Source of the DNA: Escherichia phage KM02
Sequence record: PQ179042
Direction: 5' to 3' (one strand)
DNA: 40,673 bases
Below are positions 8,728 through 40,673 of the stretch, piece by piece. The translations under genes and the position numbers were made by a program. The notes under the pieces were generated by a model. The model made no database searches. It was not told where the DNA came from and saw only the letters and a list, made by a program, of their open reading frames with translations. The number at the start of each line of letters is the position of its first letter. The first letter of the stretch is position 1.

Positions 8728-8766
8728 ACGTCCAGTTCGTAACTTTAAATTAGGAGATTTACACCG

Positions 8767-9465
8767 ATGGCTAAAGAGCAACTGAAGACTTTCACCACTC
8801 CTGTAGCTGGTATCGTTGAGCCTTACGCATGGCTTAACAAAGCAGACACCAAGTTTAACGAGCGTGGTGAGCATAAGGTTAACCTGACTTTCAGTCTGGA
8901 TGACCCGAAGGTCCGTAAGATGATTGATGTATTACAGAAGATTCACGACGATGCGTATGCGAAAGCACTCGCAGACCACGAGAAGAACCCACCTCAGGTT
9001 CAGCGTGGCAAGAAGCCTATAGAGCCGCGTGAAGGCGACATGCCGTGGATTGCGAATGGTGACGGTACTGTTACCATGAAGTTTAAATGCTTTGCGTCTT
9101 ACCTGAAAGACGGCAAGTCAGAGCCTATCGTATTACGGTTCTACGACACCGATGCTAAACTCATCCGTGACGTCCCGAATATTGGCGCTGGGTCTAAGCT
9201 GAAGGTAAAGTTTAAAGTCCTGCCGTTCAAGTGGAACGCTGCGACTGGTGCAAGCGTTAAGCTCCAGCTTGAGTCCTGCCTTCTGGTAGAACTGAAGGAA
9301 TGGAAAGGTGATGGTACTGGTGGCGATGGTGGTTGGGGTGATGATGAAGACCTCGGTACTGGCTACAAAGCGTCAACAGATGGTGACTTCGGGTCTGATG
9401 ACTTCGGTGACGATGGTTCCGAAGGTGGTGACGACTCCAGCTCTGGTGGCGATTACGATTTTTGA
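8767..9465 (+). CDS. 2.5: Single-stranded DNA-binding protein
   Basis: 232 aa, identical length to T7 gp2.5; acidic C-terminal tail ending DYDF; internal GKKPIEPREGDMPW. Confidence 0.92.
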   Translation: MAKEQLKTFTTPVAGIVEPYAWLNKADTKFNERGEHKVNLTFSLDDPKVRKMIDVLQKIHDDAYAKALADHEKNPPQVQRGKKPIEPREGDMPWIANGDGTVTMKFKCFASYLKDGKSEPIVLRFYDTDAKLIRDVPNIGAGSKLKVKFKVLPFKWNAATGASVKLQLESCLLVELKEWKGDGTGGDGGWGDDEDLGTGYKASTDGDFGSDDFGDDGSEGGDDSSSGGDYDF

Positions 9466-33700: not shown

Positions 33701-34624
33701 GAGCATAGCCTGACTGGTAGTAAGCGTAAGTTCGATGACCGCTGGCTTAAGACCGCTGGTATCTCTGACGAGCAGTGGAAGGGCATTAAGTCCCTCATCC
33801 GTGAGTCAGTGACGCGTGGTCCAGACGGGAAGTACACCATCAAGGATAAGAAGGCGTTCAGTCAGGACCCAAGGGCTATGGACCTCTGGCGTATGGGTGA
33901 TACCATCGCTGACGAAACGTTACTACGTCCTCATAAGCTGTCCAACATGGACGCAAAGGCTTATGGCCCTCTCGCTAAGACTGTCCTTCAGTTTAAGAAC
34001 TTCGTCATCAAGTCCATCAATGGACGTACCATGCGAACCTTCTATAACGCCACGAAGAACAACCGAGCGATGGACGCTGCCCTGTCCACTGTGATCTCTA
34101 TGGGTCTTGCCGGTATCTACTACATGGCTCAGGCTCATGTCAAGGCTTACGCTATGCAGGATGATCGAGGCCGTGACTACCTCAAGCAAGCTCTAGACCC
34201 GACGATGATTGGATATGCAGCTCTATCACGTAGTTCACACCTTGGTGGACCACTTGGGGTCGCCAACATTCTGGGTGGCATCGCTGGGTATGAGGACACT
34301 AAGTTACTCCGCTCGTCTATCCTACCTCGTTCGCCAACAGAGAAGCCTGAACGTGCTATCGCGTATGGTGCAGCTACAAGTGACCCTGTGATGAATGTGG
34401 TCGGCAACTTCCTTGAGCAGGTCCCGGCTTTCGGATATGCTGCTAACGTTGGTGCTTCGGCTTATAACTTGGCGGGATACCTCAAGGCTGATACCCGTGT
34501 CAACGAGCGAGACTACATGACCGGGATGTATAACACGTTCCGTGAACTTGTACCGAATGACCCGATTACCCAGAAGTTGCTGCTTGGAACGTTTGAGGAG
34601 CAAGGCATCCACATCAAGGACTAA
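30737..34624 (+). CDS. 16: Internal virion protein D with a non-T7 N-terminal domain
   Basis: From about residue 190 onward matches T7 gp16 (TGGSP.NL, AGVIGAGVDPLTYVP, RLEARETARN, DLVRSPTGMQSGASGK, LTGRARR, HKLSNMDAKAYGPLAK); the first 130 aa or so lack the T7 SLT motif. Confidence 0.93.
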   Translation: MATRGIRNNNIGNIRVSKDQWEGATGDDGSFVTFDSPESGVRALAKNLQSYGRQGYDSIEKIINRWAPPSENATQSYIDSVVAATGIPATQSIDLTNPDVLASLSEAIGYHETGSRYDPEVYQKGVERALNGISPKTPPVSANVFDALTEGLKAKPKVALGENLPTAAGLNIEGQAPEAPNESFGEMFYKSTGETMQEREDRSTWFGFGSATEAEVKNSMVGVAIRAGQTEDSLDVIGDVFNPTRWNNHKWTRDELDQIRNAGVLPQYYGVITGGSPQNLTELINLALENQKFDQEKAKAGTGAQLAAGVIGAGVDPLTYVPIAGQVGKGAKLVNKMFTVAAQSGALAGVSEMARTSVAGGDAHVAEAILGGALFGGGMTAIADGLGRALGRNTNEFAGPATRLEARETARNVDGQDLSRLPIQEGEQTFSHQGVKFSDVPNEPGSVRLEDGSILIGENPLNPKTRQVFDEVIEPERAAAGVNLGGLTEIGLKLLRSESPEIRGVAADLVRSPTGMQSGASGKIGTTASDVFERLRAVDHRFYNDIDDTVTEALKDPYFQTAFWRDSGAFRQDIYQRVSMAIEDGSGNLKAELTPGELKVYDLLKNQFDAKREMMENPAMFGRPDAQSIFPGSRFKGTYVPHVYSNQMKELYITELGSPEALQEAIKKSWLTSYASRPEVKKRVDEALLEADPTLTPEGLAAAVDKYANDKAYGISHTEQFERSSVMEDNINGLVGLENNSFLEARNLFDSDMSIVLPNGQTFSVNNLREWDMDKIVPAYNRRVNGDIAIMAGTGKTTKDMKDLVETMMNKAGDDGKLKGEVSTLRDTLKILTGRARRDGADDAAFATVMHTMTDLSFFAKNAYMGVQNLTEIGGMLARGNVRAMLHGVPIFRDLAFRNKKVGASEIKDLHNVIFGKELDDSIRPSKQDVIDRLRSYSDLGRGTATALGTAKYYTGELAVRSPFTKVLNGTTNYLLDAGRQGFLSDIVEHSLTGSKRKFDDRWLKTAGISDEQWKGIKSLIRESVTRGPDGKYTIKDKKAFSQDPRAMDLWRMGDTIADETLLRPHKLSNMDAKAYGPLAKTVLQFKNFVIKSINGRTMRTFYNATKNNRAMDAALSTVISMGLAGIYYMAQAHVKAYAMQDDRGRDYLKQALDPTMIGYAALSRSSHLGGPLGVANILGGIAGYEDTKLLRSSILPRSPTEKPERAIAYGAATSDPVMNVVGNFLEQVPAFGYAANVGASAYNLAGYLKADTRVNERDYMTGMYNTFRELVPNDPITQKLLLGTFEEQGIHIKD

Positions 34625-34642
34625 ACTATCACTATAGGAAAC
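34620..34642 (+). promoter_or_regulatory. Phage-RNAP promoter (phi17 analogue)
   Basis: ctaaactatcactatagg at 34621-34638, overlapping the gene 16 stop. Confidence 0.7.
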
Positions 34643-34689
34643 GGGAGGCGCTACCATAGGTCTCCCTTTAATTCATAACGGGAGGCATA

Positions 34690-36903
34690 ATGTCCACGAT
34701 TACACAATTCCCTTCAGGAAGCACTCAGTACAGGATTGAGTTCGACTACCTAGCCAGAACGTTTGTTGTTGTTACGCTGGTGAATAGCTATAACCCTACC
34801 CTGAACCGTGTACTGGAAGTTGGTCGAGATTACCGATTCCTTAACCCAACGATGATTGATATGTTGGTTGACCAATCAGGTTTCGACATCGTTCGTATTC
34901 ACCGTCAGACTGGAACTGACTTAGTGGTAGACTTCAGGAACGGCTCAGTGTTGACAGCTAGTGACCTGACCAATTCAGAGCTTCAGGCTATCCATATTGC
35001 AGAAGAAGGTCGAGACCAAACGGTTGACTTAGCGAAGGAATATGCCGATGCTGCTGGTAGCTCTGCTGGCAACGCTAAGGATAGCGAGGATGAAGCACGC
35101 AGAATCGCTGAGAGTCTCAAGGCATCTGGTCAAATTAGCTATATTACCCGTCGCTCCTTCGAGAAAGGCTTCAACGTTATAACATGGAACGAGGTACTGC
35201 TATGGGAAGAGGATGGTGAGTATTACCGCTGGGATGGTACGCTTCCAAAGAACGTTCCTGCTGGTTCAACTCCTGAAACTTCCGGTGGGATTGGATTAGG
35301 TGCGTGGGTTAGTGTAGGTGATGCTACATTAAGATCTGACTTATCATCTGTGGATGGAATCAGTGTTGTTGGAGCAGCAAACTACGCAAATATCCGCGCA
35401 TATACAGGCCCAGCTAACCACATTAACTGTTATGGTAGAAGCTCTATTTTTGACAATGCTTCTGGGTATTTCTTCGCGGATTCATCCGATACGACAACCC
35501 AAGACAATGACGGAACTGTGCTTGTCGATGCGTCCGGTCGTCGCTGGAAGCGCAGCTATACAGGGCCTGTCGACGCCCGCTGGTTCGGAGTTACGGCAAA
35601 CGGGAGCACGGATGACACCGTTGCAGCTAACAAAGCGCTGGCAACACTTCAACATGTGGTCTTCCCGGTAGGCATAATAATAATCAGTGCACCTCTTATC
35701 TTTGGTACTCAGACCATCGAAGGCGCTGGAACTTATCCAAATGGCTCCTACGGTACTATCATCCAGTGTACAGGCGACCATGCCGCGTTTGAGCATGCTC
35801 CTACTAGGTATCAGCCGGGAGGTATTATTCGTAACTTTTGGATTAATTATCAAGCAGGGAAACCAACTATAACCACTGGAAATGCCAAAGGTGTTAACTT
35901 CGGTACGTCCAACACGTCTATTGATCCGCTGGTTAATGGCGCGACCAAATTTATAGTAGAAAACGTCATTGTCCGTGGTGCTTATTGGGGCTTCTATGAT
36001 GTAACGTCTACATATTTAATGGAGTACAGGAACTGCTGGGCATGGGACTGCTATGTTGGGTTTAAAAAGCATTACGGAACTACCATAAAATATAGCTCTT
36101 GTTACGCACTGGACTGCTACGGCTCGTGGGATATGCAAGATAGTCACTGCGCCACCTTTGAGAACTGCGCCTACGACGGCACAAGCATCATCGGTAACAT
36201 TAAGCCTATTTACTTCAAAGGATGCCCAGGCGTCACAATTAACGGGATGCAGCATGAATCAAGTAAAATTGACGTTTCAGGACGTGGTGACTTTGTTATC
36301 GAAAACTGCGTTGGGTTTGTGCTTAATGGCATGTCAATTCCTTCCTGGCTTAATACGTTAACTACCGGAGAAGCATATCTATTTGAGATTATAAACTCCA
36401 CGGCAGACATAAAGGGAGTAGCCCTCTCTGCGGATGCCGCCAATGTGAAAAGCTCGGGTGCGAATACGTATTTATTTAACGCCAAGAGCGGAAGTATCGT
36501 CAATGTTTCGGCGAGCGGGCTACCGGCTGTGGCTGGGTCATCTTTCAATTACAGCATGTCGGCAGACAGTACCAGCAGAATCGACAGAACTCCAAGTGCG
36601 GTAATTGGTGGATTGACCGCTGGTGCGGTGTTTCGTAACGGCGTGTCCGCGCCTGTGTATGTGGATTACAATTCTGTTACGATTGCCGTTGGTGCTGTTG
36701 CATTGATTGGTACCGTAACCCTGCCCGGAGTTAAATATCAGGACTTCCTGATGGCTGACTCGTCAACAGGGGTGAATGGTTGCACTATAGATGTTGTTAG
36801 GCCAGCGGGAGCAGTTGGGAGTGTTAACGTTTATATCCGTAACAACAACGCATCCCCTGTCACCCTTACAGGCCAAATCGCAATAAGATATCTTAGACCA
36901 TAG
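34690..36903 (+). CDS. 17: Tail fibre/tail spike: T7 gp17-like N-terminal anchor plus beta-helix (pectate-lyase-like) C-terminal domain
   Basis: N-terminus FDYLARTFVVVTL..DYRF...LVDFRNGSVLTASDL matches T7 gp17; the remainder is G/N/T/S/V-rich with ARWFGVTANGSTDDT, typical of depolymerase tailspikes; 737 aa versus 553 aa. Confidence 0.88.
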   Translation: MSTITQFPSGSTQYRIEFDYLARTFVVVTLVNSYNPTLNRVLEVGRDYRFLNPTMIDMLVDQSGFDIVRIHRQTGTDLVVDFRNGSVLTASDLTNSELQAIHIAEEGRDQTVDLAKEYADAAGSSAGNAKDSEDEARRIAESLKASGQISYITRRSFEKGFNVITWNEVLLWEEDGEYYRWDGTLPKNVPAGSTPETSGGIGLGAWVSVGDATLRSDLSSVDGISVVGAANYANIRAYTGPANHINCYGRSSIFDNASGYFFADSSDTTTQDNDGTVLVDASGRRWKRSYTGPVDARWFGVTANGSTDDTVAANKALATLQHVVFPVGIIIISAPLIFGTQTIEGAGTYPNGSYGTIIQCTGDHAAFEHAPTRYQPGGIIRNFWINYQAGKPTITTGNAKGVNFGTSNTSIDPLVNGATKFIVENVIVRGAYWGFYDVTSTYLMEYRNCWAWDCYVGFKKHYGTTIKYSSCYALDCYGSWDMQDSHCATFENCAYDGTSIIGNIKPIYFKGCPGVTINGMQHESSKIDVSGRGDFVIENCVGFVLNGMSIPSWLNTLTTGEAYLFEIINSTADIKGVALSADAANVKSSGANTYLFNAKSGSIVNVSASGLPAVAGSSFNYSMSADSTSRIDRTPSAVIGGLTAGAVFRNGVSAPVYVDYNSVTIAVGAVALIGTVTLPGVKYQDFLMADSSTGVNGCTIDVVRPAGAVGSVNVYIRNNNASPVTLTGQIAIRYLRP

Positions 36904-37015
36904 ATGTAATTAACCACCGCTTCTGCTGGGTGTGGTGGTATAGGCTAACTACACGCTAACCAACGTAGGGTAACAACTTTTGGTCACGGACGACCCGCTT
37001 TAAACTGGAGGTTTT

Positions 37016-37562: not shown

Positions 37563-38000
37563 ATGCTCAAACTTTTACGACAGGCCGTCCCTTGGCTGGT
37601 GGCAGGACTCCTGTTCTGTTCAGGCTACTGGGTGGCAGACAATAAGTGGGAGGCGAAAGTAAACGATGAGTACATCACGAAACTTGAGGCACGAGAAAAT
37701 CAACGGGCTGCTGTCCAAGGTGAAATCGACAAAGTGTCAAAAGACTGGCAAGACAAGATGTCCGCGCTGGAAGGCTCTACTGATAGGATTATTGCTGACC
37801 TTAACCACGATAACAAGCGGCTGCGCGTCCGAGTCAACACCTCAGGTCTCACCGAGTCAGATGTCAGTCGATGCTTCCCTAATGGTAGAGTCGAACTACA
37901 CCCAGAAACTTCTAAAAGTCTTATCCGAATAACTCAGGAGGCGGACCTTAAGGAGAAGGCGCTTCAGGACACAATAAGGAGGCTCCAAGGTGTTAAGTGA
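37563..38000 (+). CDS. 18.5: Rz-like i-spanin
   Basis: N-terminal TM segment; ALEGSTDRIIADLNHDNKRLRVRV matches T7 gp18.5. Confidence 0.88.
   Translation: MLKLLRQAVPWLVAGLLFCSGYWVADNKWEAKVNDEYITKLEARENQRAAVQGEIDKVSKDWQDKMSALEGSTDRIIADLNHDNKRLRVRVNTSGLTESDVSRCFPNGRVELHPETSKSLIRITQEADLKEKALQDTIRRLQGVK
37666..37932 (+). CDS. 18.7: Rz1-like o-spanin lipoprotein, embedded in the +1 frame of gene 18.5
   Basis: PRWKALLIGLLLTLTTITSGCASES (lipobox) and SVDASLMVESN match T7 gp18.7. Confidence 0.82.
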   Translation: MSTSRNLRHEKINGLLSKVKSTKCQKTGKTRCPRWKALLIGLLLTLTTITSGCASESTPQVSPSQMSVDASLMVESNYTQKLLKVLSE

Positions 38001-40497: not shown

Positions 40498-40673
40498 TCT
40501 CACAGTTCAAGAACCTCAAGTCTCCCCATAGGCCCTCTTTCAGTCAGACCAAAGGCCCTACCCCAGTCTATCATAAGGTTGGACCGATGGTCAAGACTTC
40601 AGGTCAACGATAGGTAGAGGCTATGGCTTAGGGAAGGACGATAGGTTGGGACTATGGGTCTTCTTTGAGTCTC
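40498..40673. repeat. Right direct terminal repeat (176 bp), identical to 2-177
   Basis: Exact sequence identity with the left end, read directly. Confidence 0.95.

Follow-up and report, generated by a model that had tools for sequence, protein, structure and literature searches.

The whole stretch of DNA analysed here, hereafter the window (40,673 nt, Escherichia phage KM02), bears an exact direct repeat of 176 bp at its ends (2-177 = 40498-40673), which marks it as a complete linear genome of the T7 type. Its backbone is that of a Kayfunavirus, the nucleotide identity to E. coli phages (phiHAO1-1 and vB_EcoP_F, for example) being 93-94% across 24 kb, and the phage is a K1F-like podovirus of the T7 group. 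The tail-spike gene is located on the + strand at 34690-36903, where an open reading frame encodes 737 aa plus a stop codon. Upstream of it lies the gene for a 1295-aa gp16-like internal virion protein, and genes for a holin, gp18, an Rz-like protein and the large terminase follow downstream. This is the gene-17 position, between gp16 and holin/gp18, in the same order as in the annotated records of Vec13 and vB_EcoP_F, and the position is shared with the Kayfunavirus gp17 spikes (PMC10408124), 9vvr and the Vec13 spike. PHROG tail-fibre families match the protein with E 1e-74. Because its full-length homologues reach E = 0 and the exact 737-aa protein was recorded once in an independent assembly (Logan SRR33209174, 40.5-kb contig), the observation of a tail spike at this locus is far beyond chance. 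The first-pass annotation began the feature at 35100, which corresponds to aa 138 of the reading frame and lies inside the gene; this number is a guessed domain boundary, not the gene start. One GenBank Kayfunavirus record, titled 'Enterococcus phage EFA-1', looks mislabelled.

The gene is flanked by a promoter-like site and by hairpins. About 45 nt upstream of the start codon lies ACTAAACTATCACTATAGGAAAC (34620-34642, + strand), a site resembling promoters of phage RNA polymerases. It belongs to a set of nine + strand sites in the window that share the CTAAACTATCACTATAGG consensus, with CACTATAGG cores starting at 2739, 5822, 7750, 17896, 21114, 22101, 27164, 34630 and 39907. The likeness of these sites to the phage-RNA-polymerase promoters of the T7 group suggests that they act as promoters. 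Scanned for sigma-70 promoters and terminators, the surroundings of the tail-spike gene yielded no signal beyond that expected from shuffled sequence. A hairpin (GGGAGGC...GTCTCCC, 34644-34667), 3' of the promoter-like site and 5' of the gene's ribosome-binding site, could be an RNA-processing or stability element. Another hairpin, ACCACCGC...GTGTGGTGGT (36913-36939, + strand), is found directly 3' of the stop codon; it has a dG of -14.3 kcal/mol and carries no T tract.

The N-terminal part of the protein is a virion anchor of the T7 gp17 type (aa 1-135; 34690-35094, + strand). PF03906 (Phage_T7_tail) scores above threshold at aa 11-115 (E 5.6e-15, 55.8 bits as compared with a cut-off of 25.2), and the T7 gp17 structures 7boz, 8dsp and 8e4g align to aa 7-135 (E 1.8e-15 for 7boz). 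The likeness to T7 gp17 is confined to this N-terminus, exactly as had been proposed from a first reading of the DNA. A Tail_spike_N domain of the TSP1/gp66 type (PF18668; aa 151-215; 35140-35334, + strand) comes after it, scoring above threshold at aa 151-211 (E 3.1e-20, 72.5 bits as compared with a cut-off of 25) and matching the N-terminal domains of TSP1, TSP3 and TSP4 of CBA120. The solved tail spike 9vvr_A is nearly identical to aa 1-226 (E 2.2e-132); a literature search on the PDB codes 9VVR and 9LNA returned no relevant paper. At the nucleotide level the anchor region (aa 1-226) is about 96% identical to many Kayfunavirus, the identity to other members being 96-97% up to nt 645 of the gene. 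The Tail_spike_N domain, at 93-97% nucleotide identity, is the last part that is conserved among Kayfunavirus spikes. The exchangeable part had earlier been placed from aa 150 onward, as a beta-helix of some 580 aa directly behind the gp17 anchor. That boundary is not borne out, as the variable module begins at aa 216-228 and aa 151-215 are the conserved Tail_spike_N domain; the helix itself is there, at aa ~296-650.

Downstream of the Tail_spike_N domain the gene parts from its relatives. In local blastn, the backbone matches Vec13 and the endosialidase phage vB_EcoP_F at 93-95% as far as 35334 and again from 36928 onward. The intervening cassette (35335-36927, + strand; aa 216-737 plus 24 nt past the stop codon; local blastn against loci L001, L005 and L006) is without similarity to the Kayfunavirus backbone. 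Its 5' junction lies directly after the Tail_spike_N domain and its 3' junction, 24 nt past the stop codon, falls inside the post-stop hairpin, the 3' arm of which is already backbone. The closest copy of the module was found in a phage of another kind: over the 1,532 nt of window 35371-36902, identity reaches 94.7% to the tail-spike gene of L001, a locus of a K1G/K1ind-like Kagunavirus and thus of a siphovirus. In that locus a canonical intrinsic terminator, GGCCCCAAACGGGGCCTTTT (8752-8775), comes after the module, in contrast with the T-tract-less hairpin in window 36904-36939. Between the two copies, 55 codons differ synonymously and 20 non-synonymously; these raw counts fit purifying selection in each of the two lineages. 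The modularity of anchor and receptor-binding domain is confirmed down to the recombination junctions. The cassette was gained by recombination just 3' of the Tail_spike_N domain, and the comparison points to a recent exchange with an unrelated phage, between virulent phages of different morphotypes (podovirus and siphovirus).

It is known that O-serogroup-specific receptor-binding proteins of Kayfunavirus and Kagunavirus are horizontally exchanged (Pas et al. 2023, PMC10408124), and the same pair of genera shares a K1 endosialidase module on different anchors, in K1F (Kayfunavirus) and in K1H and K1G (Kagunavirus) (PMC10408124). The K1F/K1H module is a GH58 beta-propeller endosialidase, whereas that of the window is a beta-helix without a C-terminal chaperone. 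The exchange seen in the window is also much more recent, with 94.7% nucleotide identity as compared with the 49% amino acid identity quoted for K1F/K1H. An endosialidase of the K1F type (GH58) was itself tried as an identity for the window spike and rejected, as the identity to vB_EcoP_F ends at 35334, the protein has no sialidase or Peptidase_S74 match and its fold is a beta-helix. The missing Peptidase_S74 match also means that the protein lacks an autoproteolytic chaperone domain.

The fold of the module was predicted with AlphaFold2 for aa 211-737 as a monomer, using a 21-sequence alignment, and the model reached a mean pLDDT of 88.8 and a pTM of 0.81. It divides the module into three parts. 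The first, by model secondary structure, is a small alpha/beta cap domain (aa 228-295; 35371-35574, + strand), which matches residues 61-132 of the AM24 tail spike 5w5p with E 3.9e-15. The second is a right-handed, three-stranded parallel beta-helix of the pectate-lyase-like superfamily (aa ~296-650; 35575-36639, + strand) that starts with an ARWFG...GSTDDT motif and a capping helix. The pectate-lyase fold that the first-pass annotation had claimed is thus what the predicted structure gives, and both motifs it quoted occur in the protein (window 35575-35619), with ARWFG at aa 296 and GSTDDT spanning aa 305-310. The third is a six-stranded beta-sandwich at the C-terminus (aa ~651-737; 36640-36900, + strand; strands at model residues 446-525), which is conserved only in the close subfamily, the matches of the wider family stopping near profile position 420-450. 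The skew in composition noted from the letters alone is real but modest: G, N, T, S and V make up 0.44 of aa 216-737, as compared with 0.31 +/- 0.04 (maximum 0.42) for 19 long + strand open reading frames of the window. Charged residues account for 0.14 of aa 216-737 and for 0.24 of the anchor.

Family models recognise the helix unevenly. PF12708 (Pect-lyase_RHGA_epim) stays below its gathering threshold (20.9 vs 27 bits, E 3.5e-4, aa 297-478), so that the beta-helix is assigned by its fold instead of by this model; in some homologues a PF12708 match is precomputed. PF27114 (Phage_tail_beta) is a precomputed match for the exact 737-aa protein (locus L004) and for nearly all homologues, and NCBIfam holds no family for the tail-spike protein. 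When the family profile was compared with PDB sequences, only the first helix turns (WFG..G.TDDT) aligned, to Sf6 gp14, GH55 glucanases, phi29 gp12 and AlgE epimerases, and catalytic residues are therefore not transferable by sequence.

Conservation was instead counted across 80 relatives that cover the central helix. D437 is conserved in 74 of the 80, K460 (within K460-x-x-G-T-T) in 73, G463-T464 in 79, D496 in 76 (plus 2 with Glu) and E523 (within Q521-H522-E523) in 78. Position 521 is Asp in 62/80 relatives and Gln in the subfamily of the window spike. E424 and H522 were weighed as possible catalytic residues too but dropped, since they are invariant only in the close subfamily (30/80 and 11/80, respectively). 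By their spacing relative to the N/C ladder (N425, N448, S470, N492 and N518), D437 and K460 lie at one rung phase and D496, Q521 and E523 at another; the two groups possibly form one site, which might lie between subunits as in Sf6. The pattern of conservation suggests an enzyme. It appears very unlikely that the module leaves the glycan chain uncut, either merely binding it as a non-catalytic adhesin or altering it, for instance by removing acetyl groups. Two observations speak against this: the three carboxylates and the lysine are kept in 73-78 of 80 divergent relatives while the surrounding surface positions vary, which is the pattern of an active site, and Pfam found no esterase (SGNH) domain in the protein.

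Then, which chemistry would these residues serve? Most characterised O-antigen spikes are endoglycosidases, and by analogy a glycoside hydrolase would be the default for spikes of this kind. The beta-helix could also be a polysaccharide lyase that acts by beta-elimination on a uronic-acid-containing glycan, a Ca-dependent lyase being a possible alternative chemistry. We consider a lyase unlikely, as the hydrolases CBA120 TSP2, GH87, phi29 gp12 and GH28 score equally well in structural comparison and a direct reading of the tail-spike sequence did not find the AlgE-type YG(F/I)DPH(D/E) motif.

Relatives of known specificity bear on the nature of the substrate. Most of the best Foldseek matches in the PDB are capsule depolymerases (K64-1 S2-4, K2-2 TSP, Depo32 and AM24), the cap domain is common to capsule depolymerases of Klebsiella and Acinetobacter phages, and relatives within Kayfunavirus and Kagunavirus often bear capsule-specific (K1) spikes, which P22-like phages include too. 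These observations speak for the same architecture acting on a capsular (K-antigen) or other exopolysaccharide, in the manner of the capsule-degrading spikes of Klebsiella and Acinetobacter phages. The likeness of a beta-helix fold, however, does not track its substrate, since the O-antigen spikes CBA120 TSP2 and Sf6 score equally well in Foldseek. CBA120 TSP2 (5w6p/6w4q), which is specific for the E. coli O157 O-antigen, is only about 15% identical to the window spike in sequence and, unlike it, is one of the four spikes of a myovirus's branched complex.

Among viral proteins, the closest match in structure is the 479-aa protein A0A7H0XC56 of the Vectrevirus Mt1B1_P10 (Foldseek E 2.3e-28, 32% identity, TM 0.64-0.70), a stand-alone beta-helix protein without an anchor. 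Mt1B1_P10 uses the O-antigen and the K1 capsule as alternative receptors (PMC12361893); the former tells against a purely capsular reading, and K1 is normally served by an endosialidase and not by a beta-helix. Since K1 endosialidase spikes occur in the same phage types, the type of phage alone is no proof of an O-antigen receptor.

A second line of evidence came from the neighbourhood of the homologues. In two unrelated Citrobacter freundii prophages, Acyl_transf_3 genes directly adjoin a homologue of the module. One is a gene for an AT3+SGNH fusion (L002 12007-13869) in a P22-like prophage, and the other encodes a 342-aa AT3 protein (L007 10248-11276) in a prophage whose spike has an N-terminus that we take to be epsilon15-like. 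An acyltransferase gene beside the tail spike is the arrangement of the O-antigen-acetylating, seroconverting phages Sf6 and phiV10, and by this analogy the prophage genes are probable seroconversion genes. Such neighbours, typical of O-antigen seroconversion, weigh against a capsular substrate. The O-serogroup specificity documented for receptor-binding proteins of Kayfunavirus and Kagunavirus (PMC10408124) is a further clue to the O-antigen. Because of the acyltransferase neighbours in the two prophages and the receptor use of Mt1B1_P10, the O-antigen is favoured as the probable receptor, whereas a capsule seems rather unlikely.

With the O-antigen as the favoured receptor, the observations can be joined into one explanation, to which as a whole we assign a probability of about 0.72: a single Kayfunavirus receptor-binding spike carries an exchanged beta-helix cassette that binds and cleaves a surface polysaccharide, the O-antigen being the most likely receptor. 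Six spikes, presumed trimeric, would be held on the tail by the gp17-type N-terminal domain, followed by Tail_spike_N. The trimeric state is taken over from solved relatives, and the 9vvr entry lists 18 chains. The distal aa 216-737 would form a self-contained cassette of cap domain, beta-helix and C-terminal beta-sandwich, in which the helix would bind the repeating host polysaccharide along its length. Cleavage would most probably be that of an endoglycosidase, by the conserved carboxylates D437, D496 and E523 with K460 nearby, and it would allow the virion to work down to the outer membrane and DNA ejection to be triggered. We infer both that a polysaccharide is cleaved and what the receptor is; most likely it would be the O-antigen on the LPS of an Escherichia strain, to which O-antigens of the Citrobacter type would be related.

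How far the module is spread was examined at several levels. At the DNA level it is absent from 50,697 GenBank phage records (megablast), where only nt 1-645 of the gene were matched, and from 5,426 complete E. coli genomes (blastn, sensitive setting). A single-protein scan of the GTDB species-representative genomes found nothing, a scan of the same genomes with the alignment found one 37% match in an Enterobacter metagenome-assembled genome, and a pattern-based scan of IMG/VR with the alignment found nothing. When 1.84 billion representative proteins (clusters at 50% identity) were searched exhaustively with the profile, the whole module was matched by only about 10 clusters at E < 1e-100 and by 72 at E <= 1e-30. 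By itself, the cap domain turned up in a great number of spikes in the same search, among them many from Klebsiella, Acinetobacter, Serratia, Aeromonas and Ralstonia phages (38-51% identity), and it adds a further tier of modularity within the receptor-binding part.

The Kagunavirus version, 649 aa long, accounts for a cluster of 83 sequences. They come from contigs of 41-47 kb, and some are labelled E. coli or gut 'Bacteriophage sp.'; the version in E. coli assemblies has the accession HDB9181026.1. An E. coli host is suggested by the backbone of the phage and by such assembly labels. In this cluster, that of P0001, one member (MDU3284306.1) is labelled as a Cutibacterium avidum metagenome-assembled genome and is most likely a mis-binned phage contig.

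More distant copies of the module (42-66% identity) sit behind different N-termini. Homologues from C. freundii prophages (P0004, P0011, P0012 and P0018) begin with the P22 head-binding domain PF09008, another type, presumably the epsilon15-like one, is shared by P0003, P0016 and P0019, a siphovirus-type N-terminus is found in P0007 and P0008, and Tail_spike_N alone precedes the module in P0013. In the C. freundii prophages, homologues at 58-65% identity replace the body of the P22/Sf6 endorhamnosidase spikes behind PF09008. The window protein differs from P22 and Sf6 in having a T7-type anchor in place of the head-binding domain. Its helix-start motif aligns with Sf6 gp14, and past the first helix turns no sequence likeness was detected between the body of the window spike and that of P22 or Sf6.

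Among GenBank phages the closest relative of the receptor-binding domain is only 32% identical. The Vec13 domain, at 32% identity, is of the same beta-helix family, but the window spike has an extra cap domain of about 70 aa that the Vec13 spike lacks. An anchor with an exchangeable beta-helix module of the depolymerase type is a well-documented design, as is exchange between Kayfunavirus and Kagunavirus (PMC10408124), and our understanding of tail spikes in general is unchanged by the finding. The novelty lies in the module itself, a rare one without any close relative that has been characterised or solved (32% to Vec13 and to Mt1B1_P10), and one that was transferred recently between morphotypes. 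We propose only tentatively that aa 228-737 define a rare, biochemically uncharacterised depolymerase family, with about 10 full-length clusters (none of solved structure), a D437/K460/D496/E523 signature, maybe a novel specificity for glycan or an active site between subunits, and a very recent transfer.

The tail spike determines which strains the phage can infect, and the locus offers a clean, recent natural case of the exchange of a receptor-binding module between a podovirus and a siphovirus. The defined boundaries of the cassette, together with its occurrence behind at least five virion anchors, recommend it as a part for retargeting phages or tailocins, and the module is a candidate enzyme for serotyping or for stripping surface glycan.

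Further downstream, an open reading frame in another frame (37666-37932, + strand) is embedded in the Rz-like reading frame (37563-38000) and contains a lipobox-like LLLTLTTITSGC. It is a candidate outer-membrane spanin of the Rz1 type, nested in the Rz gene.
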